Origin: Verrucomicrobiota bacterium
GTDB lineage: Bacteria > Verrucomicrobiota > Verrucomicrobiia > Limisphaerales > DASXHY01
Assembly (NCBI GenBank): GCA_051960355.1
Contig: JBQCEJ010000225.1
Coordinates: 1 to 38,943, forward strand
Direction of reading: 5' to 3'
DNA length: 38,943 nt
Shown here: in pieces, positions 9,724-26,288 of the stretch
Layout: every line of letters starts with the position of its first letter
Position numbering within the stretch: the first letter of the stretch is position 1
The notes under the pieces: model-generated
The model's database searches: none
Told to the model about the DNA's origin: nothing
What the model saw: the letters and a program-made list of their open reading frames with translations, nothing else
Translations under genes and position numbers: made by a program

Positions 9724-11961
9724 TTATTTTTCCGTAGTCAGGGTGCCGCTGAGTTGAACCGATTTACCCGCTTTGAGTTTGAGATCAGCAGTGAGATCGC
9801 CATAGCGCACTTTGCCGCCCGTGCCGGTCACGCTGCGAATCACGGCGTTCTTCAACTTGCCGCCAGCCCAGGTCAGGTCCACTTCGAAACCGCCGCGGGC
9901 GCGCAGCCCTTTCACGGAACCGGATGGCCAGACTAATGGGATTGCGGGCAGAAGATTGATTTCGCCTTCGTGACTTTGCACGAGCATTTCCGCCATGCCA
10001 GCTGTGACTCCAAAGTTGCCGTCCGCCTGCATTGGCGGGTGCAGCCCGAACAAATTCGGACAGGTGTTCCGGGCAGAGAAGAGCTGCTGCAACATGCGAT
10101 GCGCATTGTCGCCGTCGTGCAACCGCGCATACAAAGCCGTGCGCCATGCAAAGGACCATTCGCGCACGTCGCTCGCAGCATCAATTCCCCGAGCGTCGAG
10201 CGAAACTCGGGCGGCTTTCGCCAATTCCGGCGTCTTCACGATGCTAATCTGATTACCAGGGTAAACCGCGAAGAGATGCGACGTGTGGCGATGATGATCG
10301 TTGGGCGTGTCGAGTTCCGGATTTTTCGAAACAGCGTTGGTTCCGGTCTTCTCGGTCATCCATTCGAGCAATTGTCCCCAGCTTCCAATTTTTGGCGTGA
10401 CCAGCTTATCGCGCATGGTGGCGATTTTATCGCGATAAGCCCGATCCACACCCAGCGCATCGCTGGCCTGAATGTAGTTGTTGAACAAATCCCAAACAAT
10501 TTCCTGGCTGTAACTCACGCCATCTTCCTCGGGACCGTGTTCTGGCGACCACGCATTCGGAACGATCAGACCGCCGTCGGGCATGGTTTTCAGATGATCC
10601 TCCCAGAATTCGCAAGTTTCCTTGAGAATCGGATACGCAACCGTCCGGAGATACTTCTTGTCACCGCTGAATGCGTAATGTTCCCACAGATGCTGGCAGT
10701 ACCAGGCATTCGCGGTCTTGTCCCACTTCCATCCCATGCCGCCCATGACGTTGTGCGATGTGCGGATGGCAAACCCGCGGGAGGTCATCGCGCCTGAAGT
10801 TGTTTTGAAATCCGGCGACGCGGCGGTGGCCTTGCGCCAGGCGGGAAGCTGGCTGGCGATCAGGTCAAAGAACGGCACGTGACACTCGGCCATGTTCGCG
10901 ACTTCGGCAGGCCAGTAATTCATCTGCACGTTGATGTTCGCATGGTAATCGGAATGCCAAGGCGGATCGTTGCGATCGTTCCACAGGCCCTGCAAGTTCG
11001 CTGGCAAGCCGCCGGGACGCGAACACGAGATCAACAGATAACGGCCATATTGAAACAGCAGTTCCTCCAGCTCAGGATCCACGGTGTGGACCGCGGCGAG
11101 TTTGCGTTTGTCTGTCGGTTGCGAATTTTGTTCCGGCGACGATTTTCCAAGGTCGAGCGCGACGCGGTTGAAGAGTGATTGAAAATCTCTGACGTGTTCC
11201 GCCTTGAGCGTGGCAAAGCTTTTCCGCGAAGCCGCCGTCAATGCCGCGCTCAGGCGTTTGTGCGGCGGCTCACCGCGATAATGCTTCACGTAGTCCATCG
11301 CGTAGTCCGTGCCTGCAACGATCAGGAAGGTGAGGCGATTGCAGTTCTTGAACTCCAACGTCGTCCCGCTGGCCCGGAGCGAACCGCCCTCATGCAACGC
11401 GAGTAGTTGCCACTCAAATTTCAAACCATTGTCCAGCGCGCCGGAAACGATCAGCCGATTGCCTTCCGCTGCGACGCGGGCATTGTGCGAATCGGCCAAT
11501 TCGATCGTTCCCGTATAGCTGCCGGGCTTATCCGCAGTGAATTCCGCCGCGAGCACGTCCGCGGGATGACTGCACAAATATTCGCGCTGAAAGGTCACAC
11601 CGTGCGATTGATAAACGACCTTGGCCACGGCGTTGCTGAGATCCAGTTCACGGCGATAGTTGGAGTTGGTTTCATGGCCGGGCAAATTGATGAAGATGTT
11701 TCCAAACGTCTGATAGGAGCCCATTTTTTGATAGTCGCCCGAGAGGTTTTCGTCGCCGGTCCAGAGGCTGTTCTCATTGATGTTGATTCGTTCACGCTCA
11801 GGCACGCCGAAGATCAAACCACCGAGACGTCCGTTGCCGATCGGCAGCGCTTCGTTCATGGGATTTTTGGCCGGCTGCTCAAACCAGAGGGTCAAGTCCG
11901 CAGCGAAGCTGGTTTGGATCAACTGCCAAATAACGACGGCGCCTATAAATAACTTTTTCAT
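9724..11961 (-). CDS. glycoside hydrolase family 95 (alpha-L-fucosidase-like), secreted
   Basis: N-terminal signature [48 protein letters not shown], following the signal peptide [21 protein letters not shown] prefer the ATG at 11961 to the ORF-track start 12030, which overlaps the crp gene. Confidence 0.85.
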
Positions 11962-12019
11962 GATCTGCTTGCTGTGCGTCGGTTTGGACGGAACAGCGGG
12001 CGGCTCATTCACGCCCGGG

Positions 12020-12739
12020 TTACTCGCCAAGGTTGCGGCGCAGCAGCGCGTTCAAGCGGGCCGGCGAGAGGATCGTCACGGTCTTGTCTTTGACGGTCAG
12101 AAGCTTTTGCTGCCGGAACTTGGCCAATGTGCGGGAAAACGTTTCGCTGACCGTGCCGAGTTCGGCCGCCAGCACGCGCTTGGTCATGGTCAATTCGATG
12201 CGCGCCGGCTGTTCGCTGGCGGGATTGGGACAGCGCTTGATCAGCCAGTTGGCCAGCCGGGTTTCCACATCCTTCAAGGTCAGGTCTTCGAGTTGGCCGA
12301 CGAGCACGCGCAGATGACTGCTCATCGAGCCGAGCATGCGCAGCGCGAGTTCCGGCTGGCGTTGCAGCAGGGCGAGAATGCCGGCCTTTTGAACGAGCAG
12401 AACCTGCGAGGCCTCAAGTGCACGCGCATCGGCGGGATAACCCTTTTCGGAAGCCAGCGCCACTTCGGCAAAAGAATCGCCGGTGCGGAAGACGTGGATG
12501 ATCTGTTCCTTGCCCGCGGCGCTGACGCGATGAACGTTCACCGCGCCGCGCTGCACAATGTAAAAACCCACAGCGGGATCGCCTTCGTGAAACAAATAAT
12601 CCCCTTTATCAAGCGCCTTCACCACGGTCACGGCGGCGATATTTTCCAGATCCTGCAGCGGCAGTCCGGTGAACAACTGACAACTTCGGAGCGTGTTGAC
12701 GATGGCAATGGTTTTGAATTCGTTCAGAGCGGCGGACAT
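12020..12739 (-). CDS. Crp/Fnr-family transcriptional regulator (DNR/NnrR-like; no FNR-type Cys cluster)
   Basis: cNMP-binding fold ([23 protein letters not shown]...GDSFAEVAL) and a C-terminal HTH ([23 protein letters not shown]). It has a single N-terminal Cys. It lies in the nirK operon. Confidence 0.85.
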
Positions 12740-12748
12740 GCGAACGAT

Positions 12749-12997
12749 TCAAGCAGTTTCCCGCCAAAAGTAAACCAGCCAGTCCGCCCCTGCCCCACGC
12801 TCAACCTTGGATGCAAAACCTTCACTGCTCAATTTCTCAATCAACGGCGAGGGCAGAAAGGGTGCGATGACCAGCAAGCCTTTGCCCGCAGGCAGCGCGT
12901 CCACGCGCTTGCGAATTTCAGGAAAGGGCTCGGTGCCGCCGCGAATCATCTCGCGCACGTCGAACCGCTTGAAAGCAGTGATCGGAGGAGTGCTCAT
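12749..12997 (-). CDS. DUF2249 domain protein
   Basis: An 82-aa ORF with a DUF2249-like pattern (FDVREMIRGGTEPFPEIRKRVDALPAGKGLLVIAPFLPSPLIEKL). Its start overlaps the sco stop (ATGA at 12994-12997). Confidence 0.65.
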   Translation of the reverse strand: MSTPPITAFKRFDVREMIRGGTEPFPEIRKRVDALPAGKGLLVIAPFLPSPLIEKLSSEGFASKVERGAGADWLVYFWRETA

Positions 12998-13620
12998 TGG
13001 CTGTTCATGGTTTTAAGTTTTTCGATAACACCGTCCGTCGGGAGATTCAAGCCCGGCTGTTGAAACACGATTTCACCCTCGGCATTCAATACCGTGATGA
13101 GATTGGAATGCGCGAATTGCCCGCTCGCATCCTTCCGATAATTCACGCCGAGCAAAGCCGCCAGTTCACGCACATTGTCCGGCTCACCCCGCAACAGCGT
13201 CCAGTCGGCCTTTGGCAGATCGCGTTCAATCCGCATCGCGTGCAGAGCCTCTGGCGTGTCGCGCTCGCTGTCAAACGAGATCAGCGTGAAACCCACGTTC
13301 GTGCGCAACGCTTCCGGCAAGGCGCTGGCAATGCGCTTGAGGTCGTTCACCAGGATGGGACACGTGTACTGGCAACTGGAGAAAAACATGATCACGACCT
13401 GCGGCTTGCCGCGCAAGGCGCCGAGCCGGATCGGCTTCGCTTCGTCTGTCGTCCAGATCGAATCAATTTGATAAAGCGACTTGTCGGTGAACGTCGCCGG
13501 CGCGAGTGTTTTGGAGCAGCACGCAGGCAAATCAGGACTGCTGTTCCTTTCCGGGGCTGGTGCGGCGCCTGCAATCGACCAAGCCAAAGCGGCGGCCAGC
13601 AGAATTGTTGGAGTCTTCAT
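12994..13620 (-). CDS. SCO1/SenC-family copper chaperone (thioredoxin fold)
   Basis: CxxxCP motif (SCQYTCP) plus a downstream His (FAHSN). Signal peptide MKTPTILLAAALAWSIAGA. The ATG at 13620 overlaps the nirV stop (ATGA). Confidence 0.8.
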   Translation of the reverse strand: MKTPTILLAAALAWSIAGAAPAPERNSSPDLPACCSKTLAPATFTDKSLYQIDSIWTTDEAKPIRLGALRGKPQVVIMFFSSCQYTCPILVNDLKRIASALPEALRTNVGFTLISFDSERDTPEALHAMRIERDLPKADWTLLRGEPDNVRELAALLGVNYRKDASGQFAHSNLITVLNAEGEIVFQQPGLNLPTDGVIEKLKTMNSQ

Positions 13621-14411
13621 AAATCTTTGGCGCAACGGAAGCCCAAGTTGTGAACGGAATAATCTGCCTTGAGGCTGCTGCGAAATCCGTAGCGCATGAA
13701 CGCGGGAAAATTTTCGACGTCTTTCGCTCCAACCGATCCAGCGCCGCAGAAGCGTTCTCGGTCAAGCCCGCTGTCGTTGCGCGCGTCGCCAGTGACGGTG
13801 GCGGTGTTAAAGTCGGAAACCCATTCCCAGACCAGCCCATGCAGATCATGCACGCCCCAGAGATTCGCACTGTCCAGACCGACGTCGTTCAATTTCGCGG
13901 GAGTTGGTGTGGCATACCATTGGAACACCTGCCGCTTGAAGGCGGCATCGTTCTCGCCGTCCGCGCGCGTTGGGCTGGCAGCGGCGGCGTATTCCCACTC
14001 GGCCACCGTTGGCAGACGTTTGCCCTTCCATTGCGCGTACGCTTTGGCGGCAAACCAGGACACGCGAGTCACGGGAGCGTTTGGCGGCGCATTGGTGCCG
14101 AGGTCCAGGTCACCGGCCCAATGTTTTAGATACGATTCGTCAGCGAAAATCCGTTTCACCTGTGACCGTTGCCAACGCGGATTGGCGCGGACGAATTCCA
14201 GGAACTCGCTGTTCCTGACCGGCAGCACGTCGAGATAAAAACCTTTGACCGGCACTTCCTTGAGATCCGTCAGCGACCGAAACAATGGCCGATAAACGCC
14301 GTCAGGAATTCGCGCCATGCCTGCCGGAGGCAATTCTGCGCCCCACGCGCTGCTCATGACTGCGCTGGCGAGCAGTGCGGCAAGGCAAATGGATCGGCGG
14401 ATTCCTGACAT
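13617..14411 (-). CDS. nirV: formylglycine-generating-enzyme (SUMF1) family protein, NirV-like
   Basis: FGE-sulfatase domain signatures (VTRVSWFAAKAYAQWKGKRLPTVAEWEYAA; LWGVHDLHGLVWEWVSD; NLGFRCAKDL). It lies immediately downstream of nirK, as nirV does in other denitrifiers. I prefer the start at ATG 14411 (MSGIRRSICLAALL...). Confidence 0.8.
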   Translation of the reverse strand: MSGIRRSICLAALLASAVMSSAWGAELPPAGMARIPDGVYRPLFRSLTDLKEVPVKGFYLDVLPVRNSEFLEFVRANPRWQRSQVKRIFADESYLKHWAGDLDLGTNAPPNAPVTRVSWFAAKAYAQWKGKRLPTVAEWEYAAAASPTRADGENDAAFKRQVFQWYATPTPAKLNDVGLDSANLWGVHDLHGLVWEWVSDFNTATVTGDARNDSGLDRERFCGAGSVGAKDVENFPAFMRYGFRSSLKADYSVHNLGFRCAKDL

Positions 14412-14433
14412 GGCTTGTTTCTTTCGTTTCGGG

Positions 14434-15972
14434 TTATTCGAAACTGCTCTTGGCTGGGGGTGGCGGCGTTTCCTGACGGATCCGGGCGACTTCCTGAACA
14501 GTGACCGCATCACCGCTGTTGCCCCAACTGTTGCGCACATAGGTCAGCACGTTGGCGATTTGTTCGTCCGTCAGATAAGCCAGCGAGATCATTGTGCCAT
14601 TGTAGGTCTTGCCATTAACGGTGATCTCGCCTGTGCGTCCGGCGATCACGCCTCGAATGATGTCATCCTTGTCCTTGGCTGAAAGAAAATCGGATTTGGC
14701 CAGCGGCGGAATCTGGTTCGGAACACCCTGTCCTTCGAGTTGATGGCAGACGAAGCAGGTTTGCGCATAAACCGATTTGCCTTTCTGGATTTGGATTTCC
14801 TTGGTCAACCCGGCGATCTTGGGATTGCTTTTGATTTCGTGGGCAACCTCGGCCTTGAGGGCGGCAACGCGCTTTTCCGTCTCGCCGCCTTCCACGGCCT
14901 TGCCGAGATAAACCGCGTCCACTTCCTTGCCGGAATAGACGATTTGATTTTGTGGACCGTCCACTTTCAACATGCCGAGCGCGCCTTTGTTGAACGCGCG
15001 GAACAGCGCGTGGTCCACCAACACGTAGGTTCCCGGAATTTCCACCTCGAATTCCAGCATCACCGCGCCGCCAGCCGGAATGGTCGTCGTCTGCACATTG
15101 TGCTGGCTGGGCGTGGTGCCGCCTTCCTGATAAACGGTGTCGAAGATTTCGCCGATGACGTGGAAGGACGACGTGAGATTGGGACCGCCGTTGCCGACAT
15201 ACAAACGGATTTTCTCACCCACTTTGGCCGTGAGCGCCTTGTCGCCCACCAATGATCCGACGGAACCGTTGAACACCACGTAGGTCGGTCGCTCGTCCGT
15301 GGCTTTGTTCATATCGAAACCCTGCAAGCCTTCCTCGCCATAACCACCGATCGTATAAAACTCGCCTTGCATCACGTAATATTCATGGTCCACGGGCGGC
15401 AAACCTTCCTTCGGCTCGACGAGAATCATTCCATACATGCCGTTGCCGACGTGCATGCCGACCGGTGCGGTGGCGCAATGATAGATGAAGATTCCGGGAT
15501 TAAGAGCCTTGAACGTAAACTGCGAGCTGTGACCGGGCGCCGTGAATGATGATGCCGCGCCGCCACCGGGCCCGGTGACCGCGTGGAGATCGATGTTATG
15601 CGGCATCTTGTTGTCTTGATGATTGTTCAAATGGAACTCCACCTCGTCGCCCTCGCGAATGCGAATGAAGCTTCCCGGGACATTCCCGCCGAACGTCCAG
15701 AAAACATAATCGACGCCATCAGCCAGTCGCTTGGTAACTTCAATCACTTCCAGGTTCACGACCACTTTGGTCGCATGCTTGCGCGTGATCGGCGGCGGCA
15801 CCTGTGGCGCTTGCGTGAGCACGGCATTTTCAACACCTTGGATTTCCGGATCGGTGAGTTTGCCGGCTGGGGCCTTCACTTCCGATTCCGATGAGTGCGC
15901 GATGCTCATGGTCAAGCACAGGCCAGCAGTGGCGACGCAGAGTTTTTTCCTGAGAGCGGGGCTAATTTTCAT
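14434..15972 (-). CDS. nirK: copper-containing nitrite reductase NirK with a C-terminal cytochrome c domain
   Basis: Cu-ligand motifs [15 protein letters not shown] and [20 protein letters not shown]-terminal extension of about 150 aa with the heme c motif CFVCH (14743-14757). Signal peptide present. Confidence 0.9.
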
Positions 15973-16137
15973 AGTTCACTTTGTTTTTGGAAATCTAGTT
16001 TGGGATTGCGGGTTTAAGCCATCAACAGTCAAGGGCGCGAACGCCACCACCGGGGAGATCGCGGCGAGCACCAGTCTGTTTCGGCTCTCTGAGATCTGAG
16101 ACATGAGTGAAATTTAGCATTGTCGAAAGCTGCCGCA

Positions 16138-16151
16138 TTGACTTTCGTCAA
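16138..16151. promoter_or_regulatory. candidate Crp/Fnr (FNR/DNR-type) binding box
   Basis: Perfect palindrome TTGAC-TTTC-GTCAA in the divergent intergenic region. It lies about 166 nt from the nirK start and about 138 nt from the start of the NarI-like gene. The FNR/DNR consensus is TTGAT-N4-ATCAA. Confidence 0.5.
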
Positions 16152-16288
16152 AGACAGGAAGCTTCAGACTCGGCATCTTGAGACGCAGATGGAATGAAAA
16201 TCTGAAACAACGCCGTGGAAATTCAGTGCTAGATTTTTGACTCCAGCAGCATTACTTGTTTCAACTCAGAAAGCCGAAAACATCAATC

Positions 16289-17335
16289 ATGTTTAACACC
16301 CTGAATTTCCGCGCTGCTCTGGTCGCCGGCGCCGCCACACTCCTGCTGGTGATCATGATTCTCGTGGGTTCGCGCAACCTGGGAAATTTCGATCCCGCCC
16401 TGATCGCTTACCTCTTTGGCTGCATCTTCGCCTGTTTCGGCGTGGTTTACCGCTACAGCGTCTGGCTGCAACGCGCACCGACCTGGCGTTACTTTGTGCG
16501 CGGCTGGCAATTGTTCTTCACCGGCCGAACGATTGCCTACGGCTGGGAGTTGACCAAACATTTCGTGATTCAGTTTCTCGGCCAGAAATTCATTCGCAAT
16601 CGCGGCAAGACGCGCGGTTACGGGCACATGCTCATGGCCTGGGGCTGCATGCTCGCCTTTGCGATTACCTTCCCGCTCGTGTTCGGCTGGATTCACTTTG
16701 GGCTCAAGCCGGGCGGCATTGACACCTACGAGATTTTCACCTTCGGCTTCAAAGTGATGGAATTTCCGCTGCACACCTGGCTGGCTGAAATCATTTTCAA
16801 CGGCCTGAACTGGTCGGCCATTCTGGTGATTGCCGGCGTGATGATCATGATGCGCCGCCGTCTGACGCATGCGGGCCAAATCGCGATTCAGACGTTCGAA
16901 GGCGATTGGCTGCCGCTCTTGCTCCTGCTGGCGATCTCGTTGACCGGGCTGGGCATCAGCCTCGATTACAAATTCATGGAGGGCAAAGCGCATCAGTTCA
17001 TGGCCATCACCCACGCGATCACCGTGATTTTATTCCTGCTCTGGATGCCGTTCGGCAAGTTCTACCACATCATTCAACGCCCGGCCCAACTCGGCGTTTC
17101 CATCTATCGCAAAGCCGGCGCGGAAGGTCCGCAAGCCGTTTGTCCGCATACGAAACAACCGTTCACTTCGCAGATGCACGTGAACGATCTCAAAGACGTG
17201 ACGGCGCAACTCGGCTTTGATTTCAAGCGCAAGGACGGTTCAACGCATTTGGATTACAGCCCGCAGGGAAAGCGCGCTCTGCTGGCCAAGGCGCATCTCC
17301 AGGCGCGGCAGAAATCCGGTTCACTCTTTGGATAA
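16289..17335 (+). CDS. NarI/DsrM-like integral membrane b-type cytochrome with a cytoplasmic C-terminal tail
   Basis: Multiple TM helices with conserved His residues (GYGHMLMAWG, RRRLTHAG, AITHAI). NarI-family motif LWMPFGKFYHIIQRP. First gene of the operon. I prefer ATG 16289. Confidence 0.65.
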   Translation: MFNTLNFRAALVAGAATLLLVIMILVGSRNLGNFDPALIAYLFGCIFACFGVVYRYSVWLQRAPTWRYFVRGWQLFFTGRTIAYGWELTKHFVIQFLGQKFIRNRGKTRGYGHMLMAWGCMLAFAITFPLVFGWIHFGLKPGGIDTYEIFTFGFKVMEFPLHTWLAEIIFNGLNWSAILVIAGVMIMMRRRLTHAGQIAIQTFEGDWLPLLLLLAISLTGLGISLDYKFMEGKAHQFMAITHAITVILFLLWMPFGKFYHIIQRPAQLGVSIYRKAGAEGPQAVCPHTKQPFTSQMHVNDLKDVTAQLGFDFKRKDGSTHLDYSPQGKRALLAKAHLQARQKSGSLFG

Positions 17336-17341
17336 TTCACC

Positions 17342-19557
17342 ATGGCCACACTACCTGTTTCCGCTGAAGAAGTGATTGCCCGTTTCGGGCCGTCCCTGAA
17401 TTTCCCACCCGCCCAGGGCATTCCCGGACGCGACGAACCAGATCAAGTCGTCAAGACGCACTGTTGTTTCTGCGGCATGCAGTGCGGAATCAAACTGCTG
17501 GTGAAGGAAAACCGCGTGGTCGGATTCGAGCCTTGGGAGGAATTTCCCTTCAACGAAGGCCGGCTTTGCCCGAAAGGCGTGCAGCGCTACTTGCAAAATA
17601 ATCATCCCGATCGCCTGCTCGATCCGATTCAGCGCGTCGAAGGGAAAGGCTTTCTGCCCATCAGTTGGGATGCGGCGTTCGAGCAGATGATTCCGGAGAT
17701 CCAGCGCATCCAGGGGAAATACGGCAAGGACGCGTTCGCAATGCTTTCCGGCGTGTCGCTGACGAACGAGAAAAGTTATCTCGTCGGCAAATTTGCGCGC
17801 GTCGCGCTCAAGACCAAGAATCTGGATTACAATGGCCGGCTATGCATGGTCAGCGCCGGTGCGGGAAACAAGAAAGCCTTTGGGCTCGATCGCGGATCAA
17901 ACAATTACTCCGATCTGGCGCACGCCGAGGTCATCATGATCTGCGGCACAAACGTGAGCGAAACCTTTCCGACGCTCACGCACTGGATCTGGCAGGCTCG
18001 CGATAACGGCGCCAAGCTCATTGTCGTGGACCCGCGCCTCACGCCCATTGCGCGGACCGCGGATCTGCATCTGCCGATTCACCCGGGTCGCGACTCCGCG
18101 CTCTACGGCGCGATTCTGCATCAACTGATCAAGCATGATTGGCTGGACCATGAATTCATTGCCAACCACGCGAGCGGCTTTGAAGAGGCCAAGAAAGCCG
18201 TCGAGTCCTACGACCTCGATTGGGCCGAGCGCACCACCGGCATTCCGAAAGAGAAAATTCTGCAAGCGGCCAAATGGTGGGGCCCAGCCAAGACCAGTTT
18301 TCTGTTGCACGCCCGCGGCATTGAACATCAGAGCAAAGGCGTGGAAAACGTGCTCGCCTGCATCAACCTCGTGCTCGCCACCGGGCGCATTGGAAAACCC
18401 TACTGTGGTTATGCCACGATCACCGGCCAAGGCACGGCCAGGGTGGCCGCGAGCACGGACACAAGTGCGATCAACTGCCCGGCAACCGCGACATTGAAAA
18501 TCCGGAACATCGCAAATACATCAGCAGCGTTTGGGGCATCGATGAAAAAGAACTGCCCGGCAAAGGCCTCACTGCATATGAAATCATGGAGGCGATTCAT
18601 CGCGGCGAAATCAAAGGGCTGATCAGCATCTGCTTCAACCCGCTGGTTTCGTTGCCCAACAACAACATGATTCGCGAGGCTTTGGAGAAGCTCGAATATT
18701 ACGTCTGCATTGATTTCTTTCTCAACGAAACCGCCCGCCACGCAAATCTCATTCTGCCCGGATCGCTCCAGGAGGAAGAGGATGGCACCGTCACCACGGC
18801 CGAGGGCCGCGTGGTGCGCATTCGCAAAGCGGTCAACCCGCCTGGCAACGCCCGCACAGACACCAGCATTCTATTGGAAATTGCCAAGCGCCTCGGCGCC
18901 GAAAAACATTTCACTTACAATTCCTCAGAGGAAATTTTCAATGAATTGCGCGTCGCTTCCAAAGGCGGCACAGCGGACTACTTCGGCATCACTTACCAGA
19001 AGATCGAAGACAACATGGGCGTCTTCTGGCCCTGTCCTTCCGAGGATCATCCCGGCACGCCGCGCTTGTGGGAAGATCGCAAATTCAAAACGCCGGATGG
19101 CCGCGCGCATTTTCACGGCGTCCCTTATCGTGATCCGGCCGAACTTACTGATGCCGATTACCCAATGATCCTGACCACCGGGCGCGTGGTGTCCCAATAC
19201 TTGAGCGGCACGCAAACCCGCCGCATCGGCAAGCTGGTGGGCCAATATCCCGAGCCGCTGCTGGAAATTCATCCCATGACGGCGGCGCGCTACGGCATTC
19301 AGGAACGCGAACTGGTTCGTGTTTCGACGCGGCGCGGTTCCGCCGAATATCCGGCACAACTGGTCGAGACCATCCGAGAGGACACGGTCTTCGTTCCGTA
19401 TCATTGGCCGGGCCGCAAGTCAGTGAATCAGTTGACGTCCGGCCATCTCGATCCGGTCTCTAAAATTCCCGAATTCAAAGTGTGCGCCTGCCGGCTAGAG
19501 CCGTTGGGACGTCCCGCTCCATCCGCCGAAGTCACCAAAGCTTACGCCAGCGCATGA
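17342..19557 (+). pseudogene. molybdopterin (bis-MGD) oxidoreductase catalytic subunit, NasC/NarB-like nitrate reductase family, interrupted by an apparent 1-nt frameshift near 18434
   Basis: N-terminal 4Fe-4S motif [10 protein letters not shown]...LCPKG and no Tat signal. ORF 17342..18622 loses family similarity after ATITGQG. From 18439 the +1 frame reads [61 protein letters not shown] and runs straight into ORF 18586..19557. The observed ggcacggcc versus the expected ggcaacggcc (GNGQGG) implies one missing A. Confidence 0.8.
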
Positions 19558-20129
19558 TCACAACGACCTTCCGCACTGATCAGGAATTTTTCTTTGACCC
19601 GCAGCGTTGCATCGGCTGTCACGCCTGTGAAATGGCCTGCGCTGAATGCGAAACCAACGGCCAGACCGCGATGATCCATGTCGATTACGTGGATCGCTTT
19701 CTCACGACGCAAACGTCCGTCCAGGTTTGCATGCATTGCGAAGACCCGGCGTGCGCGAAGGTTTGTCCGGCTGACGCGATCACCAAGGATGAGTTTGGAA
19801 TCGTGCACAGCGCCAACACCGCGCGTTGCATTGCCTGTTCAAACTGCGTCCAAGCCTGTCCGTTCGGTGTCCCGAAGAAAGTCGAGCCGTTGGACCTGAT
19901 GATGAAGTGCAACATGTGCTACGACCGCACCAGCGCGGGCAAGAAGCCGATGTGCGCCACGGTTTGCCCCAGCGGCGCCCTCTTCTACGGCACGCGTGAA
20001 CAAATCAGCCGCAATCGCCCGAACAGCACGCCGGTCAATCAATTCCGGTTTGGCCAGCAATCCGTCAAAACCAAAGTCAATATCATGATGCCCAAAGGCG
20101 CCACGGAACTCGTGGTGGACAGCGAATGA
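19554..20129 (+). CDS. 4x[4Fe-4S] ferredoxin-type electron-transfer subunit (DmsB/HybA-like)
   Basis: Four Cys clusters: [37 protein letters not shown] and CNMC...CATVCP. The ATG at 19554 overlaps the molybdoenzyme stop (ATGA). Confidence 0.85.
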
Positions 20130-20635
20130 ACTCCCCCAGCAAACTCCCCGAAAAGTCCGCGCCCGAAGTCGATTTCCCGATCGAACGCGTCGAAGCTGAA
20201 CACGTTTCGCGCCGCGAATTCACCAAATTTCTCTGTCTGGTATCCGGTGGAATGGCCGTGGGCAGCGGTTGGGTTGCGGTCAAAGATCGGTTGTTTCTGC
20301 CGCATCGAATTCAGGGCGAAGAGTTCGTCTGCCGGATCGCGGACGTTCCGCTCGGCGGCACGCATGCCTTTACCGTCGCCGGTTCCAAGACGCCGTTTAT
20401 TTTGATTCATCTCAATGACGGGAGCTGGCGCGCTTACGAGCAGAAATGCACGCATTTGTCCTGCGCTGTCTTCTATCAGCCGCAAACCGACAGGATTCAA
20501 TGTCCGTGTCACAACGGCTGGTTTGACGCCCGCACCGGCAATGTCTTGCAAGGCCCGCCGCCGCGTCCGTTGCCACATTTGGAAGTCATCGTCAAAGGCG
20601 AAGAGATTTACGTCACTGAACCGAAAACCGCATGA
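20126..20635 (+). CDS. Rieske [2Fe-2S] protein with an N-terminal twin-arginine motif and hydrophobic anchor
   Basis: CTHLSCAV...CPCHNGWF Rieske ligands. SRREFTKFL (20207-20233) followed by [20 protein letters not shown] overlap with the upstream gene. Confidence 0.85.
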
Positions 20636-22146
20636 GCACGTTTCGCGAAGCCCAACGTCAGGCGCACCCGACCAAAACCAACACGCTGCTGCTGGGTGTG
20701 ATGTGCGTGCTGATCCTCATTCTCATCATGCAGGTCTGGCTGCTGACCGTGGCGTTGAATGAATCCCTCGACGGAGACAACGCGGTCAAGTGGCCCGCCT
20801 TCTGGGTGTCGTTGGCGTTGTTCGGTTCCGGAGCCGCCTTGCTGCGGTATCTCCCCTCACCCATTCGCCTGCCCAAAAGCGTCGTGGTGCCAGAAGCGTT
20901 CCCACAAGCCGCTCTGGCCTGGCGCACCTTGGGAATCAGCGCTGTTTCTCTGGCACTCGCGTTTGCCGTGTGGTTCATGTGGTCAGCCATTCCGCTGCGG
21001 TTGAAGGACGCCGGGTTCCATTTTTCGCGCCAGCAACTCTTCTGGCTCACGGCCACGCCGGTCTTGCTCGGATCGTTCCTGCGCATTCCGTATGGCCTGA
21101 TTGTTTCCACCTTCGGCAGCCGGCGCAGTTACGCGTTTGTCACCCTGTTGCTGCTGCTGCCTTGCATCGCAACTGGATTTGCGGTCAAAGATCCCACCAC
21201 GCCTTATTGGTTTCTGCTCGCCTGCGCCGCGCTCACCGGCATCGCCGGCGCGAACTTCGCGACCTCCATGGGCGTGATCAACCTCTGGTTTCCCAAGCAA
21301 ACGCAAGGCACCGCGCTGGGAATCAATGGCCTTGGAAATTTCGGTGTAACGATCGCGCAATTTACCATCCCGCTCGTGATCGGCTTTGCCATTATCGGCG
21401 GTTCGGAAACTTCTCCCGGCACAACTGTCCGCCCCGTGCACATCGAGAATGCTGCGTTTATTTGGATTCCGTTCATCCTGATTTGTTCCGCCGCGATCTG
21501 GTTTGGAACCAAGGACAATGCGGCTCCCGCCAAAACCTTGGCGTCCCAACTCGTCGCAGGTAAACGCCGGCACACCTGGGTGCTTTCGTTTCTGTATTTT
21601 CTCACGTTCGGCTGCTTCGTTGCAATGGGAGCCTCGCTGCCGCTGATCATCAAAGAAGTGTTTGCCAATGCGCCGGGTGGAGCGCCCAATCCGATGCTCT
21701 TTGCACCCTGGGCTGCGGCAGTTGCAACGATCATGCGTCCCATTGGCGGCTGGCTGGCGGACAAATTCGGCGCGGGATTGATCACCTCGATTGCGATTGG
21801 AACGATGGCTTTGGGCGGCTTCAGTCTTTCGGCTTTTTTGCAGCCCAATCAGTTCGCCGGATTTTTCACCATCATCCTGATCATCTGTGCCGCCGCCGGA
21901 CTGGGGAACGGCAGCATTTTCAAAATCATTCCTCTCGTGCTTACCAAAGAAGCCGGAGCGGCGATTGGCATTGTCAGTTGCCTGGGCGCACTCGGTGGAT
22001 TTGTGCCGCCGCTCTTGCTCGGCTGGACTCTTGACCACCTCGGCAGTCCGGCCTGGGCCTACACGTCGATGGCCTTTTTTGCGCTGCTCTGTCTGGGTGT
22101 CAACGGCTGGTATTATCACCGCCGCACCTCGCCGACGTGTTGTTAA
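20632..22146 (+). CDS. narK: MFS nitrate/nitrite transporter (NarK family) with an N-terminal extension of about 95 aa
   Basis: NarK-like core begins near WRTLGISAVSLALAFAVWFMWSAIPLRLKDAGF...LRIPYG. Two extra predicted TM helices precede it. ATGA overlap with the Rieske gene. Confidence 0.8.
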   Translation: MSTFREAQRQAHPTKTNTLLLGVMCVLILILIMQVWLLTVALNESLDGDNAVKWPAFWVSLALFGSGAALLRYLPSPIRLPKSVVVPEAFPQAALAWRTLGISAVSLALAFAVWFMWSAIPLRLKDAGFHFSRQQLFWLTATPVLLGSFLRIPYGLIVSTFGSRRSYAFVTLLLLLPCIATGFAVKDPTTPYWFLLACAALTGIAGANFATSMGVINLWFPKQTQGTALGINGLGNFGVTIAQFTIPLVIGFAIIGGSETSPGTTVRPVHIENAAFIWIPFILICSAAIWFGTKDNAAPAKTLASQLVAGKRRHTWVLSFLYFLTFGCFVAMGASLPLIIKEVFANAPGGAPNPMLFAPWAAAVATIMRPIGGWLADKFGAGLITSIAIGTMALGGFSLSAFLQPNQFAGFFTIILIICAAAGLGNGSIFKIIPLVLTKEAGAAIGIVSCLGALGGFVPPLLLGWTLDHLGSPAWAYTSMAFFALLCLGVNGWYYHRRTSPTCC

Positions 22147-22167: not shown

Positions 22168-23352
22168 TCAAGATTCGCGATCGACCGAACGGCCGGAAAT
22201 ATCCAATCCCATTCCGCGGCCGGTTGCGAGCGGCAGTTCGTCATCGCGCTGAATGGATTTGTTCTCTGCACGTATCTTGGCTGACTTCAGCTCCCGAACG
22301 AATTTCGACAAACTCGACTGATACCAGCTTTTGATTCCGGGAAACCACAGCGGTTGCGGCAAACTGAGCGCTGGGACGCTGCCCGCTTCGAACCCGCGAG
22401 CAACGACATAACCGCAAATCGCCGTGAACGCACCGGCGAGCACATCGACCGAATAATGGTAGCGCAGATAGACCGTCGAAACCCAAAGAACCGCGCACGG
22501 CAGCGCCAGCCAAACAAAGCGGCGACGATAACAGTGCGCATCGAACATCAGCAGATAAAGAGAGACGGCGACGTGAATGCTGGGAAAGACGTCCACCCCA
22601 TTGCTGCCGCCATCCACCCACGGTTTTGAAATTTCTGTTATCCAGCCGCCGGTCAAAGGTTGCGCAAAATGCAGGAACGCATGCGGGCCTCCAGCCGGGA
22701 AAAATGTGTATCCGATAAATCCCACTCCATAAACCGTGAACAGCCCGACGAAGCACTGGCGAAACCGATCCAAGTCGCGAAAGAAAAAAACCGCCGGCCC
22801 GAGAACGAGGTACAAAAAGAAAAACAAATAGCCGACCATCATCAGATCGGTCAGCCACGGAAAACTCCCAAATTGAGTTGAAAGGTCCACGTTCCCCACC
22901 AGCGCATAATCCCAGTTGGCCAGCACAGGATCGGCGCTGGGCACTGCGAGAACTCCCATGGCAGCCGGCAATGTGTAAAACGAAATCCCCATCAACACCG
23001 GATAGAGCAGCAATCGACAACGCCAGCGAAAAGATGTTGGCTGACGCCCGGCCCACCGGATCACCACCAGACTTCCAATCAGAAAGAAAAAGAAAGCAAC
23101 CGCCGGCGCGCTAAGCGGTCCGGCCTTCAGGACGAGCCGCAACCAGGTGAGCGCTAGAAAAAATCCGAAGACACACTCGTGCGGCAGAAGCCGGCTGGTT
23201 GCGCGTTGCTCAGGTCGGGAATTCACGCGAACTCCTTTTTTGCTCGAGAGCCGATCAGGCGAACGCGAACGATCGCAATCGATCGCTGGACCTGGAACGC
23301 ACAGCGTTCGAGTGAGTGGTTCAACAGTTTCATGAGTGGCAATGAACTTCAC
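22168..23352 (-). CDS. PAP2-superfamily membrane phosphatase/phosphotransferase (PAP2_3-like)
   Basis: Polytopic membrane protein with FPSIHVAVS and YLRYHYSVDVLAG (PAP2 motifs). Start codon uncertain. Confidence 0.7.
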   Translation of the reverse strand: MKFIATHETVEPLTRTLCVPGPAIDCDRSRSPDRLSSKKGVRVNSRPEQRATSRLLPHECVFGFFLALTWLRLVLKAGPLSAPAVAFFFFLIGSLVVIRWAGRQPTSFRWRCRLLLYPVLMGISFYTLPAAMGVLAVPSADPVLANWDYALVGNVDLSTQFGSFPWLTDLMMVGYLFFFLYLVLGPAVFFFRDLDRFRQCFVGLFTVYGVGFIGYTFFPAGGPHAFLHFAQPLTGGWITEISKPWVDGGSNGVDVFPSIHVAVSLYLLMFDAHCYRRRFVWLALPCAVLWVSTVYLRYHYSVDVLAGAFTAICGYVVARGFEAGSVPALSLPQPLWFPGIKSWYQSSLSKFVRELKSAKIRAENKSIQRDDELPLATGRGMGLDISGRSVDRES

Positions 23353-23582
23353 AGTTCATCAAGCCCGTCTGCAAGGCACCCACTGTGGTTAACGTGTATC
23401 ACTTCACTCTCGCTAATCAATAAACACGCTTCCCCAAGCTTGGTTCTTAACAGATGGACAGCGCCTAAGTTGACCGAGAAAACAGTTGGGTCCAAGCCAA
23501 ATTCTCAGGCGAACGCGTGCGGTTCGGCTTGTTTCAGCAGCGTGGCCAGACGTGGAGCGAATTGCAGAACCGGCACGAAATC

Positions 23583-26288
23583 TCATCTGCCGTGGAGGCG
23601 GATCAAGCGTTTCAGATTCTCGTTGAAAGCAGTCGCGCCCAGCAGATTCTCCAGCGACAAGTGCATTCGGTAACGCCAGTAGTGCTTCGGATTGGCAGGA
23701 ACGTTGATCCGCTCGGCTGCGATTTCAGAACGGCGCAAGCTCTCAGACATGCCCAGCAAATCCTGCAGTTGAAAAATGCTCCACATTGCGGGAGACGCCA
23801 GATGTTGCCCGACGATTTGCCCGTTGATTTCAGGCGTGCATTGTTCTGGAGCGTCGCCTGATTGCTGCAGTTCACGATTGAAAAACCTTTGCGTGAAGCT
23901 TCGGTCTTCTTCCCACCAAGCGCGAATTGTGTTCATGTCGTGAGTCGCCGGCGTGACCACGCTGAGATAAGGCGCTTCCTCCGGTCGCGACCATTCCTGC
24001 CCGAGTTGCTTCGGCATGCGTTGGATTTCCAGGCTTAAAAGGCCCAACTGCTTCATCACCTCCGGCACACACTCCGGCACGAGCCCGAGATCTTCACCGC
24101 AAACCAGCATGTTCGTGACGCGCTTCAACGCCGGAAGCTTTTCCATCGCTTCACGCCGCCAAAATTCGTCCTGCCGTCGAAAGAAATAGTCCACGTAAAG
24201 CTCGCGAAGTTGCGCCTGCGTTTTTGGATCGAGGTGTCTGAACGAGCTGGTGTTCTCGATGGCGAACCGGAAATGAAATTCCAATCCGTGCGCACCGGCG
24301 ACTTCCAGTAAAATGACGTTGCTGATCAGATCGAACAGCCCTTGCCGGATCGCAGCATTGGCTGGCGTATTTTTCTGAGTGGCGAAATAACTTTCCACCT
24401 GCCGCTGGGTTGCAAACTCCGGTTTCAGCGAATAACGACTGGCCTGATCTGCCACCAGAAATTCCCGCTGCACCAGTTCGCGGGATTCTCCGAACAACTC
24501 CGCCAAAACGTCAGCTGTGATGAACGGCGTTACATAGCGTTCCCGATTGAATGGAATTCCGCGACTGCGAAACTCCTCCGCACGGACTGGCATCGCTGGC
24601 ACGAAATAGCCCAGAATACCTTCCACTGCATGCGCGGGAATGCTCCAGATGCGAAAGAAACCCAGAATGTGATCAATTCGAAACGCGTCGAAATAATTGC
24701 TCATCTGCCCGAAACGTTGTTTCCACCAGCGAAAACCGTCCTCCTTCATTCGCGGCCAGTTGTAGGTCGGAAAACCCCAGTTCTGGCCTTTGGCGGAAAA
24801 CGGATCCGGCGGAGCGCCCGCCTGTAGATTCAGATGATAAAGCTCCGGCTCTTGCCAGACATCGGCGCTGTGACGATACACTCCGATGGCGATGTCTCCT
24901 TTGAAAATGAGTCCTTTGCCGTGCGCGTACTCGCACGCTTCTCGGAGTTGCAGGTGCAGATGAAACTGAATGAAAAAATGGAGCTCGATCTCATCGTGTG
25001 TGGTTGAATCTTTGGCCAGAAGCGGTGCGACTTCGTCCAGATTATAACAGTCATGAGCCGGCCATGAATTGAAATCCGCGGTGCCAAACTTGTCGCGCAG
25101 AAAACAGAAAGCCGCGTAAGGCACCAGCCAGTGTTGATTCTGCTCGAAGAATTCCCGATACGCAGCGCTCTCGAAAGTTTCCTCTTTTTGAGATGGGAAA
25201 ATCTCTTTGAGGAACTTCAGCTTGGCTTTCATCACGGCCTCGTAATCGACAGCTTCAAGCGCGTTCAACCGCTTTCGTTCCGCTTCGATTTTTTTGAGCC
25301 GCTTCTGGTTCTTGCCATTGGCCACACGGCTGAGATTGAGATAGAGCGGGTGCAACGCAAAAGCCGAGATGGCGGCGTAAGGATAAGAATCCAGCCAGCT
25401 ATGCGTGGCGCTGGTGTCGTTGACCGGAAGAATCTGAATCAGCCTGAGCCCGGCTTCGGCCGCCCAATCAGACAGCAGTTTTAAATCGGTGAATTCACCC
25501 ACGCCAAAACTCTGTTCGCTTCGCAGGCTGAAAACTGGAATCGCAACGCCAGCGCCTTTCCAAGCGGGAGTGGGCAAGCGCGCAAAACCGTCGTTGACGA
25601 TCGTGTGCCGACCCGGCGTGGCGATGTCGTGGAACGTGCGATTGTCACCGTCTTCATAGCGGACGAAAACGCCCTGTGTCACATCGTAAACGCCATATTT
25701 GTAGGCGACCGGAAACGCTTCGCGGCTAAGGTCCAGTTGCACGCTGAAGAATTCTTCTCCGACGATTCGATTCAACAGGATCGGCGAACTGGTGTTCCAA
25801 TTTCCAAGCGCTGCGTTCTCGCCCAGCAGGCAAAGGGTCTGGCCTTTCTCCAGCAATGGCGCTTTGACCTTGAACGTGTGCGTCGCGCCCGGCAGCCTTG
25901 TCACAGGCACGTCCGTTTGGCATTCCCGCAACAACACATTTTGAAACGGCTCCGTATAAAAAACGTTCTCCACCGCGCCCGCATCATTCCACGAATCCAG
26001 GATCAGCACTTCACCCGCATTCAATGAACTCGGCTGAATGAACCGGTCATTGCCCCAATCTTGAATGAGCGAACCGTCCGGGTTCCGGAGGATGTAATGA
26101 TAGCTGATGCTCGTGTTCGGACCGGCAGCATCCGGCCAGTCCAGCGCGACTTCCCAGAATTCATGGTTGAGATAATGCAACGGCACGGCTTGCTCGGAAT
26201 TTGAATCGCCCAGCAATGGATGCGCGCCTGAAACGAACAAAGACTGGCCGAACCTCGTGAAAAAGCGTAATCGCAGCGTGAGTTTCAT
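23583..26288 (-). CDS. malQ: 4-alpha-glucanotransferase (GH77 amylomaltase), DPE2-like, with two N-terminal CBM20-like modules
   Basis: GH77 signatures GVAIPVFSLRSEQSFGVGEFTDL, RIDHILGFFRIWSIP, CGEDLG and ATHD. The N-terminal segments MKLTLRLRFFTRFGQSLFVSG and HTFKVKAPLLEKGQTLCLLGENAALGNW resemble starch-binding modules. Confidence 0.9.
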   Translation of the reverse strand: MKLTLRLRFFTRFGQSLFVSGAHPLLGDSNSEQAVPLHYLNHEFWEVALDWPDAAGPNTSISYHYILRNPDGSLIQDWGNDRFIQPSSLNAGEVLILDSWNDAGAVENVFYTEPFQNVLLRECQTDVPVTRLPGATHTFKVKAPLLEKGQTLCLLGENAALGNWNTSSPILLNRIVGEEFFSVQLDLSREAFPVAYKYGVYDVTQGVFVRYEDGDNRTFHDIATPGRHTIVNDGFARLPTPAWKGAGVAIPVFSLRSEQSFGVGEFTDLKLLSDWAAEAGLRLIQILPVNDTSATHSWLDSYPYAAISAFALHPLYLNLSRVANGKNQKRLKKIEAERKRLNALEAVDYEAVMKAKLKFLKEIFPSQKEETFESAAYREFFEQNQHWLVPYAAFCFLRDKFGTADFNSWPAHDCYNLDEVAPLLAKDSTTHDEIELHFFIQFHLHLQLREACEYAHGKGLIFKGDIAIGVYRHSADVWQEPELYHLNLQAGAPPDPFSAKGQNWGFPTYNWPRMKEDGFRWWKQRFGQMSNYFDAFRIDHILGFFRIWSIPAHAVEGILGYFVPAMPVRAEEFRSRGIPFNRERYVTPFITADVLAELFGESRELVQREFLVADQASRYSLKPEFATQRQVESYFATQKNTPANAAIRQGLFDLISNVILLEVAGAHGLEFHFRFAIENTSSFRHLDPKTQAQLRELYVDYFFRRQDEFWRREAMEKLPALKRVTNMLVCGEDLGLVPECVPEVMKQLGLLSLEIQRMPKQLGQEWSRPEEAPYLSVVTPATHDMNTIRAWWEEDRSFTQRFFNRELQQSGDAPEQCTPEINGQIVGQHLASPAMWSIFQLQDLLGMSESLRRSEIAAERINVPANPKHYWRYRMHLSLENLLGATAFNENLKRLIRLHGR

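Follow-up and report, generated by a model that had tools for sequence, protein, structure and literature searches.

What kind of enzyme is encoded beside the nitrite reductase gene nirK on contig JBQCEJ010000225.1 of Verrucomicrobiota bacterium GCA_051960355.1? The stretch analyzed here, called the window, comprises positions 1-38,943 of the forward strand (38,943 nt) and belongs to a 690-contig draft genome that is 88% complete. Between 16289 and 22146 it carries a row of genes, referred to below as the module, for a cytochrome b-like membrane protein (cytb), a molybdenum (Mo) enzyme, an iron-sulfur (FeS) ferredoxin, a Rieske protein, and a NarK-type transporter. Open reading frames (ORFs) were listed, and the window proteins were scanned against the Pfam and NCBIfam families. 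The module represents a widespread, unnamed, and biochemically unstudied type of nitrate reductase. With some reservation, we lean toward the view that its enzyme is a quinol-linked, cytoplasm-facing dissimilatory nitrate reductase. Union of the subunits in one complex, the electron donor, the direction of electron flow, and the physiological role are what we infer. The features of the module are as follows.

16289-17335 (+): cytochrome b-like membrane subunit, 348 amino acids (aa), six transmembrane (TM) helices in a NarI/HdrE fold, cytoplasmic C-terminal domain (fold, NCBIfam)
17342-18433 (+): NasC-like subunit of the Mo-bis(pyranopterin guanine dinucleotide) (Mo-bisPGD) type, N-terminal 364 codons, frame A (Pfam Molybdop_Fe4S4, Molybdopterin)
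18434-18435 (+): frameshift site, the leftover 'AC' of an AAY (Asn) codon minus one A (DNA alignment, L019-L025)
18436-19557 (+): catalytic subunit, C-terminal 373 codons, frame B, beginning GQGGREHG (Pfam Molybdopterin, Molydop_binding)
19554-20129 (+): four-cluster [4Fe-4S] electron-transfer subunit, 191 aa, without signal peptide (Pfam Fer4_11 and others)
20126-20635 (+): Rieske [2Fe-2S] protein, membrane-anchored, twin-arginine motif SRREFTKFL, one TM helix (Pfam Rieske)
20632-20916 (+): DUF6755 domain, two TM helices, fused to NarK (Pfam PF20540, aa 16-74)
20917-22146 (+): core of a NarK-family nitrate/nitrite transporter of the major facilitator superfamily (MFS) (TIGR00886, NarU, Pfam MFS_1)

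Gene order and distribution of the module

The ORFs for cytb, ferredoxin, Rieske, and NarK-type proteins are all present where an earlier sequence-only reading of the window had placed them, and the ATGA start/stop overlaps that it reported lie exactly at 19554, 20126, and 20632. Stoichiometric co-translation, as that reading proposed from these junctions, would be in keeping with them. The last two domains are read as a single ORF at 20632-22146 (+).

Loci were surveyed with an alignment of cytb, the most specific marker, as the query, and one genome per species was scanned. More than 583 loci matched, and synteny was read in the best 80, together with 8-kb flanks. In all of these 80 loci the Mo gene stands beside cytb, and every contig that extends far enough continues with the FeS and Rieske genes. 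Five genomes related at the level of genus or order likewise have intact orthologues in the order cytb-Mo-FeS-Rieske. The loci span at least six phyla, among them Verrucomicrobiota, Bacteroidota, Acidobacteriota, Gemmatimonadota, Planctomycetota, and Myxococcota. Cultured carriers among the Bacteroidota include Flavobacterium, Chitinophaga, Chryseobacterium, Algoriphagus, and Apibacter, and Capnocytophaga is represented by metagenome-assembled genomes (MAGs). The cytb family forms 319 clusters at 50% identity with E <= 1e-30, and at least 8000 close relatives of the catalytic subunit are held in the protein collection. In the phylum of the window the module is patchy, cytb being found in 1 of 250 sampled genomes. 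It can be seen that the genes are co-conserved across phyla. They belong neither to NarGHI nor to NapAB, in agreement with what had been proposed from the window.

Several variants of the module were observed. Two genomes of the window's genus, G010 (L015:11124-13703(-)) and G001 (L016:4536-6779(+)), hold another subtype with a NarK-cytb fusion and a Zn-ribbon tail, and the Mo subunit of this subtype is about 55-61% identical to that of the window. In the tree of catalytic subunits, this subtype groups with a Deinococcus plasmid copy, and the copy in the window falls among those of other Verrucomicrobia and Bacteroidota. This split within one genus may reflect a mis-binned contig or a module acquired by horizontal transfer. 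A gene for a PP2C phosphatase/Ser-Thr kinase fusion lies between narK and cytb in two same-order genomes (L013:3822-5957(+), L017:3247-4887(-)); it is possible that its product regulates nitrate transport or the complex. The plasmid copy, in the cultured strain Deinococcus sp. NW-56 (NZ_CP026517.1, L108:5774-12201), carries generic annotation only. The annotation gives an MFS transporter for the gene immediately upstream of its Mo gene and lists no cytochrome b. The full module with narK is present in two Capnocytophaga MAGs (L071 and L072, 8001-12530 in each). These are at odds with a 2026 paper according to which all (human oral) Capnocytophaga are without nitrate reductase genes (PMC13228040).

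Subunits of the predicted enzyme

The catalytic subunit has the 4Fe-4S motif CCFCGMQCG...CPKG (Cx2Cx3Cx27C) at its N-terminus. No twin-arginine motif is found in the N-terminus of the Mo subunit or in the ferredoxin; the motif and the missing signal for twin-arginine translocation (Tat) had both been seen correctly before. Four intact orthologues (L019, L029, L044, L081) were scored with NCBIfam. The top model is NasC (NF047855), with 799-850 bits against a cut-off of 1100, followed by Fdh-alpha (TIGR01591), with 573-622 bits just below its 666. NapA (TIGR01706, 235-295 bits) is far below 930, and AioA (TIGR02693, 125-165 bits) is below 359. For NarG (TIGR01580, cut-off 1084), the best match in the whole genome has 28.6 bits and lies within the window's Mo gene. 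Since the orthologues fall under the model cut-offs, their NCBI name is merely 'molybdopterin oxidoreductase family protein'; the Joint Genome Institute (JGI) label for relatives is 'assimilatory nitrate reductase catalytic subunit'.

The active site was read from an alignment with NasA, NapA, and FdhF, from which L038, L045, and L077 were left out because wrong-strand ORFs had been picked by length. RLCMVSA, with the Mo ligand Cys-Met, and ITGQG(N)GQGGREHG occur in every family member. At the same positions the formate dehydrogenase (FDH) references have Cys/Sec-His and Arg, whereas the family has Cys-Met and Thr, plus GGRE, as do NasA and NapA. Cys-Met and Thr-Gly-Gln...Gly-Gly-Arg-Glu thus stand in place of His141 and Arg333 of FDH, as in the Nas/Nap clade, and the subunit cannot be called an FDH with a score below 666 and both catalytic residues replaced. 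These residues, taken with the linkage to NarK, make nitrate the likeliest substrate. A second Nas/Nap-like Mo enzyme of unclear family was observed at a contig end of the same genome (G000:C80:13-2313(+), 766 aa, with RQCMATA and ITGQCNAMGSR); the Fdh-alpha, NasA_Halo, and NasC models all give it 400-485 bits.

In the window, the Mo enzyme is not a single ORF. Frame A (17342-18622) reads ...ITGQG before the shift and ends in a stop after 426 codons, and the C-terminal active-site block sits in a different frame that is open until 19557. The sequence-only reading had taken the subunit as one gene including this block, which is incorrect: a 1-nt deletion at 18434 separates the two. The DNA alignment has GGC-ACGGC in the window against GGCAAYGG in six of six close relatives (L019-L025), so that one A of GGC-AAY-GGC, in the Asn codon, is missing; the three-frame translations concur. 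The orthologues are single ORFs of 720-757 aa, and the NasC model is matched at positions 17-350 in frame A (355 bits) and 352-707 in frame B (476 bits). A programmed frameshift was considered and rejected: a -1 shift would be needed at GGC-A-CGG, no slippery heptamer is present, and all relatives are in frame. The absence of a slippery sequence indicates a deletion or an assembly error and not recoding.

This copy is therefore either mis-assembled or freshly inactivated. That the deletion is real, and that the operon in this organism no longer yields an active reductase, has a substantial chance of being true, albeit short of even. The deletion is unambiguous against the six relatives, the site lies outside any long homopolymer, where assembly errors are commonest, and frame A stops without the C-terminal Mo-binding domains. 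On the other hand, both halves share 91-92% identity with the unbroken protein of L019, frame B is free of further stops across its 373 codons, the four neighbor genes are intact, and the genome is an incomplete draft of many contigs. With such identity in both halves and no other lesion, any inactivation would be very recent. The copy must be checked against reads: reads with GGCAACGGC at 18431-18438 would indicate an assembly error, and GGCACGGC at full coverage would indicate a real pseudogene.

The second subunit to be considered is cytb, for which no Pfam family was found at E <= 0.001. Its NCBIfam matches are weak and far below the cut-offs (QmoC 36.5, TmcC 24.7, TcuB 22.6, and DsrM 16.9 bits), and when the cytb profile was run against PDB sequences, NarI was the only match, with a non-significant E of 2.9-4.5. 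Six hydrophobic segments are seen in the sequence. The AlphaFold model (predicted local distance difference test (pLDDT) 86.7, predicted template modeling score (pTM) 0.77) has six TM helices, a small beta-sheet in an outer loop (residues 135-160), and a cytoplasmic C-terminal domain. Exhaustive structural comparison returned EtfD of M. smegmatis (9ojn_A, Z 11.4, 224 residues aligned) and E. coli NarI (1q16_C, Z 11.0, root-mean-square deviation (rmsd) 4.9, 181 of 224 residues), both with a Foldseek probability of 0.99-1.0. Lower-ranked matches include further di-haem cytochromes b, and no bc1/b6f cytochrome b is among the top 50. The top families by structure are the same ones that give the only sequence matches. 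Of the earlier description of cytb as NarI/DsrM-like, a NarI/EtfD-type fold is thus supported by the model, and assignment to a sequence family is not.

The model aligns with all of NarI from its second helix on. The first helix is extra, which accounts for the N-in topology. His113, His242, and His260 are invariant in 37/37 sequences, and the spacing of 18 between His242 and His260 equals that of His187 and His205 in helix V of NarI. Two haems in cytb are likely but not certain on the basis of these alignments. In the cytb tail (window 17140-17335), a four-Cys ribbon CxxC...CPxC was observed in 13 of the 37 sequences. The tail of the window's own clade is degenerate, CPHT...SPxGKR, and keeps the first Cys only; C285, P325, and R329 are invariant. 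It looks like a metal site lost inside a conserved fold.

The ferredoxin carries four Cys motifs, in agreement with its earlier description as a four-cluster subunit. Its NCBIfam matches to HybA, DmsB, and FDH-beta stand above narH (TIGR01660, 36.7 bits, cut-off 524), and all are below cut-off. The Rieske protein has invariant CTHLSC...CPCH boxes, including the disulfide Cys pair typical of the bc-type. The motif SRREFTKFL is followed by a hydrophobic helix, and the twin arginine is kept in at least 90% of the 29 Rieske sequences compared. In its model (pLDDT 87.7), a helix of 28 residues (29-56) precedes the Rieske beta-domain. The best fold matches are the Chlorobaculum Rieske iron-sulfur protein (ISP) and Kuenenia kuste4569, at 31% identity. 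The subunit had been described as AioB-like in size, but kinship with AioB is not upheld: identity to proteins of Rieske/cytochrome b complexes is about 31%, versus 17-21% to AioB, and the AioB model (TIGR02694) gives 27 bits against 95.65. All PetC and QcrA model scores are likewise below cut-off. The positive-inside rule and the Tat-type motif predict that the domain with the cluster faces the periplasm.

Complex prediction for cytb and Rieske gave a score of 0.46 against 0.01 for the best control, with runs agreeing in at least 71% of contacts and a partner pLDDT of at least 73. Of 80 solved complexes, 58 pass the mark applied, as do 2 of 110 mismatched pairs; the cases that pass it with scores of 0.60 or less comprise just 7 of the solved complexes and both of the mismatched pairs. 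The prediction gives weak support to an association of the two proteins.

The fifth gene had been identified as NarK. An MFS protein of NarK type is present (TIGR00886 258 bits, NarU 245 bits, both below cut-off), but its N-terminal DUF6755 domain (47.9 bits over aa 16-74, gathering cut-off 27) is the true fifth subunit. In at least 29 loci, the Rieske gene is followed immediately by a stand-alone DUF6755 gene, whose product has two helices and about 85 aa (25.6 bits for the Apibacter copy), and 'DUF6755 family protein' is the NCBI annotation in the Deinococcus plasmid copy of the operon. Because DUF6755 is a separate gene in most relatives, it and not NarK is the conserved fifth subunit. No papers on DUF6755 were found in the literature search. 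The DUF6755-NarK fusion occurs in the window and 8 other loci. Fusions of NarK to cytb, with the MFS part first, are present in G010 (859 aa) and G001 (747 aa) of the window's genus, in Acidobacteriota loci L094, L095, and L097, and in several representatives of cytb clusters (750-830 aa). Both termini of NarK-type transporters are cytoplasmic in established structures. Together with the fusions, this places the cytb N-terminus and both ends of DUF6755 inside the cell. Moreover, two independent fusions of NarK to membrane subunits argue for intracellular use of nitrate.

Physiological role and rival explanations

Upstream of cytb, the window has the following features.

16138-16151 (no strand): Crp/Fnr-type box, perfect dyad TTGACTTTCGTCAA, in the nirK/cytb divergent intergenic region
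12020-15972 (-): nirK operon, divergent
14434-15972 (-): NirK-cytochrome c fusion (NCBIfam Cu_nitrite_red 354 bits, above cut-off)
13617-14540 (-): FGE/NirV-like protein (Pfam)
12994-13635 (-): SCO1/SenC protein (Pfam)
12020-12739 (-): Crp/Fnr-family regulator

The divergence of the operon from nirK was described correctly in the sequence-only reading, which also gave the two a shared FNR/DNR-type box. TTGACTTTCGTCAA is the sole match to TTGAYN4RTCAA in the window, where 0.28 would be expected. The single box stands, and its conservation in relatives does not: TTGA-N6-TCAA is found within 1.5 kb upstream of cytb in just 4 of the 80 loci, and the box was rejected as a feature of the family. The nitrogen-oxide island (12020-22146) is bordered by unrelated carbohydrate and lipid genes, with a GH95 side at 9724-12030(-) and a PAP2 protein and GH77-CBM20 at 22168-26288(-).

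Within 8 kb of the module, neither NirB nor NirD was found by tblastn in any of the 80 loci. Recurrent neighbors are molybdenum cofactor (Moco) biosynthesis genes (13-16 loci) and a ScdA/RIC gene with an Rrf2 regulator (12 loci). In 5 loci nirK lies beside the module, as nirK-nirV-sco in L042, L050, L053, and L064 and alone in L080. A gene for a SLAC1/TehA-type anion channel was also observed beside the module in 18 loci (e.g., L030:6806-7864(+), L029:12833-13885(-)), possibly a channel for nitrite or nitrate.

Genomes of 29 cultured carriers, reached through the module loci, were searched as well. NarG and NapA are each found in 0 of the 29 isolates. NirK is above cut-off in 17, NirB is present in 21, and 8 isolates have the module without NirB, 5 of them with NirK. 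Near NirB, all 21 NirB-positive isolates encode a protein of about 1170 aa. In the one case checked, Flavobacterium polysaccharolyticum (L117:2090-5602(-)), this protein consists of a Nas/Nap-like Mo-bisPGD domain (aa 1-698) and a NirB-like FAD/NAD(P)H reductase domain (aa 707-1167), and it is below every NCBIfam nitrate-reductase cut-off. Such a fusion is presumably the true assimilatory nitrate reductase of the Bacteroidota carriers, as its domain content suggests. In Apibacter mensalis, NarG, NapA, NirK, and NirB were not found, and A. adventoris is positive in the standard nitrate-reduction test (PMC7442301). The genome of the window organism itself, 88% complete, yielded neither NarG nor NapA, and NirK and a NosZ-like gene are present. 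The latter is clade-II-like, a 627-aa ORF at G000:C213:5664-7292(-) matched in two pieces of 310 and 237 bits. With NirK and this gene, the window organism looks like a partial denitrifier. Gene context and isolate data favor a dissimilatory role, without proof; the respiratory or denitrifying role proposed earlier finds support in nirK, the Crp/Fnr and NsrR-like regulators, ScdA, the lack of NirB within 8 kb, and the separate NADH-type Nas genes of isolates, and it is still a matter of interpretation.

Parts of the cluster were noticed in two earlier genome studies, with opposite readings. In Bacillus bataviensis, nasC linked to FeS and Rieske proteins was read as an alternative assimilatory system (Heylen and Keltjens, 2012, PMC3475470). 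A preprint on Apibacter (2020) interpreted it as a respiratory 'NAR' pathway that lacks NarI and has Rieske instead, and noted three narK copies together with Moco genes alongside (bioRxiv 10.1101/2020.09.30.321786). The cytochrome b was overlooked there and is present in Apibacter mensalis (L027). The architecture had been called poorly characterized from the window alone; this is right as to biochemistry, but parts of it had been noticed in these papers. The Nap/Rieske cluster of Caldithrix belongs to another system.

The dissimilatory enzyme toward which we lean would work as follows. A NasC-like Mo subunit and a four-cluster FeS subunit would sit on the cytoplasmic face of the six-helix cytb, and the Tat-exported, helix-anchored Rieske protein and the two-helix DUF6755 would complete the membrane part. 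The NarK-type transporter, here fused to DUF6755, would import nitrate and probably export nitrite. Quinol would be oxidized at the outer face of the membrane module, and the electrons would pass through the cytb haems across the membrane to the FeS chain and on to Mo, where nitrate would be reduced to nitrite in the cytoplasm. This path would be analogous to the redox loop of NarGHI. From the gene context, the nitrite may be supplied to the periplasmic NirK encoded divergently. A bolder version, which we hold to be improbable, gives the Rieske protein a place in a hybrid of a NarI-type redox loop and a bc-type Qo site. One electron of the quinol would then pass through Rieske to periplasmic acceptors, e.g., the cytochrome c-fused NirK next door, and the second would cross the membrane through cytb to cytoplasmic nitrate. 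If this were true, one complex would feed two denitrification steps and replace bc1 in lineages without one.

Several observations weigh against a dissimilatory, quinol-linked reductase. A Z-score near 11, as obtained for cytb, is in the grey zone for helical bundles. The fourth haem-ligand His, on the outer face, is variable (His136 in 31/37, His171 in 26/37, and His162 in 14/37 sequences), which leaves two haems less than certain. It is hard to see what a Rieske protein would do in a loop of the NarGHI kind, the catalytic gene is disrupted in the window itself, and the regulatory box is rare in relatives. No biochemistry of the module enzyme was found in the literature, nor any data on activity, expression, or localization. 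In a quick maximum-likelihood tree, the catalytic family is monophyletic (support 100) and is separated, together with the FDHs, from proteobacterial NasA/NapA (SH-aLRT 94); its references were plasmid-borne NasA, NapA, and FdhF, without Bacillus NasC, cyanobacterial NarB, or AioA, and without the former two the placement is not settled. In addition, the nearest curated family is an assimilatory enzyme, and with NirB in 21 of 29 isolates nitrite from the module enzyme could still be assimilated. These last points serve the main rival, an alternative assimilatory nitrate reductase that would make cytoplasmic nitrite for NirB or NirA. Its electrons would be supplied not by NADH or flavodoxin but by the quinone pool or a ferredoxin-like chain. 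The JGI label, the cytoplasmic active site with its linked NarK, and the proposal of Heylen and Keltjens (PMC3475470) point the same way. We nevertheless regard this rival as unlikely. Its expected partners NirB and NirD are not encoded nearby, every NirB-positive isolate already has the presumed fused NADH-type nitrate reductase near NirB, eight isolates carry the module without NirB, and the members score below the NasC equivalog cut-off. Linkage to nirK, ScdA, the Rrf2 regulator, and the Crp/Fnr box also speaks for dissimilation.

Two further explanations move the site of reduction or change the substrate. The whole catalytic unit could be periplasmic if the Mo and FeS subunits were exported by means of the Rieske Tat signal and anchored by the Rieske helix. 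The conserved twin arginine is confined to the Rieske protein, AioB is listed among the fold matches of the latter, and in arsenite oxidase signal-less AioA is exported with the Tat signal of AioB, the same division of labor. However, fusion of NarK to two different membrane subunits in separate lineages would be pointless with reduction outside, and the cytb relatives NarI, EtfD, QmoC, DsrM, and TcuB all serve cytoplasmic FeS partners. The cytoplasmic C-terminal domain of cytb is conserved, and AioA-type features are absent, a Cys ligand being present and the AioA model giving 163 bits versus 359. Export of the unit thus appears a slim prospect. Slimmer still is another substrate (formate, chlorate, selenate, or another oxyanion), with the NarK-like transporter carrying that anion. 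The nearest solved structures by sequence are FDHs, with 490 bits versus 381 for NapA, among matches that hold no NasC or NarB structure; the quick tree and the near-threshold Fdh-alpha score are in line with them. Against this, the His beside the Mo ligand and Arg333 of FDH are both replaced, with the very residues of NasA and NapA, the score with the NasC model is much higher than with Fdh-alpha, the transporter is of the NarK family, nirK and nitric oxide-stress genes are linked, and Apibacter has a nitrate-reduction phenotype. Nitrate as the substrate, which had been proposed on family resemblance and NarK, is backed by the active-site residues.

If the enzyme is respiratory, many 'truncated denitrifiers' that seem to begin at nitrite are not truncated, and a fourth architecture of nitrate reductase, with a Rieske subunit still to be explained, would enter the textbooks. 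In surveys of nitrate respiration and denitrification, narG and napA are the genes that are counted, and the module type is hidden under generic or assimilatory labels. Soil and host-associated Bacteroidota, Verrucomicrobiota, and Acidobacteriota commonly carry it, and it is often the sole candidate for dissimilatory nitrate reduction in the genomes searched. With several cultured hosts, the module is directly testable.

Comparison with known systems

The module resembles NarGHI with NarK of the E. coli type in its predicted NarI-fold cytb, four-cluster FeS subunit, cytoplasmic Mo-bisPGD subunit, and linked NarK. In contrast to that system, its catalytic subunit is not NarG and has a Cys ligand where NarG has Asp. 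The FeS subunit has 191 aa versus about 500 in NarH, cytb is longer than NarI by a first helix at the N-terminus and by a tail in the cytoplasm, Rieske and DUF6755 are added, and no narJ was seen. With NasC of Bacillus and actinobacteria (NF047855), the catalytic subunit shares the N-terminal cluster motif, the Cys-Met ligand, and the C-terminal block, and it is likewise cytoplasmic and about 740 aa long. It differs in its score below 1100 bits, in having no NasB/NirB/NirD partner nearby, and in always being encoded with membrane and FeS partners. Compared to NapAB, it has no twin-arginine motif and a low score with the NapA model.

Haloarchaeal pNar (NarGH, the Rieske protein NarB, and NarC) has a cytochrome b of bc1-type, and its NarGH faces outward. 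The cytb of the module has a NarI/HdrE fold instead, and its NasC-like catalytic subunit is without a Tat signal. Like pNar and the Rieske/cytochrome b modules of other N-oxide reductases, the module combines the genes of a nitrate reductase with those of a Rieske protein and a cytochrome of the b type, an analogy also drawn in the Apibacter preprint (10.1101/2020.09.30.321786). AioAB is alike in combining a Rieske small subunit that has a Tat signal with a signal-less Mo-bisPGD large subunit. To these the module adds the four-cluster ferredoxin, cytb, and NarK, and it has the Cys ligand of Mo, whereas Mo in AioA is without a protein ligand (PMC10100899). Compared to the bc1 and b6f complexes, the Rieske protein of the module is bc-type in its boxes, disulfide pair, and Tat-type anchor, but cytb is not bc-type. 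In EtfD, DsrMK, QmoC, and TcuB, as in the module, a NarI-like cytochrome b links the quinone pool to a cytoplasmic FeS partner; a CCG/HdrD-type domain is absent from the module, where the partner is a Mo enzyme.

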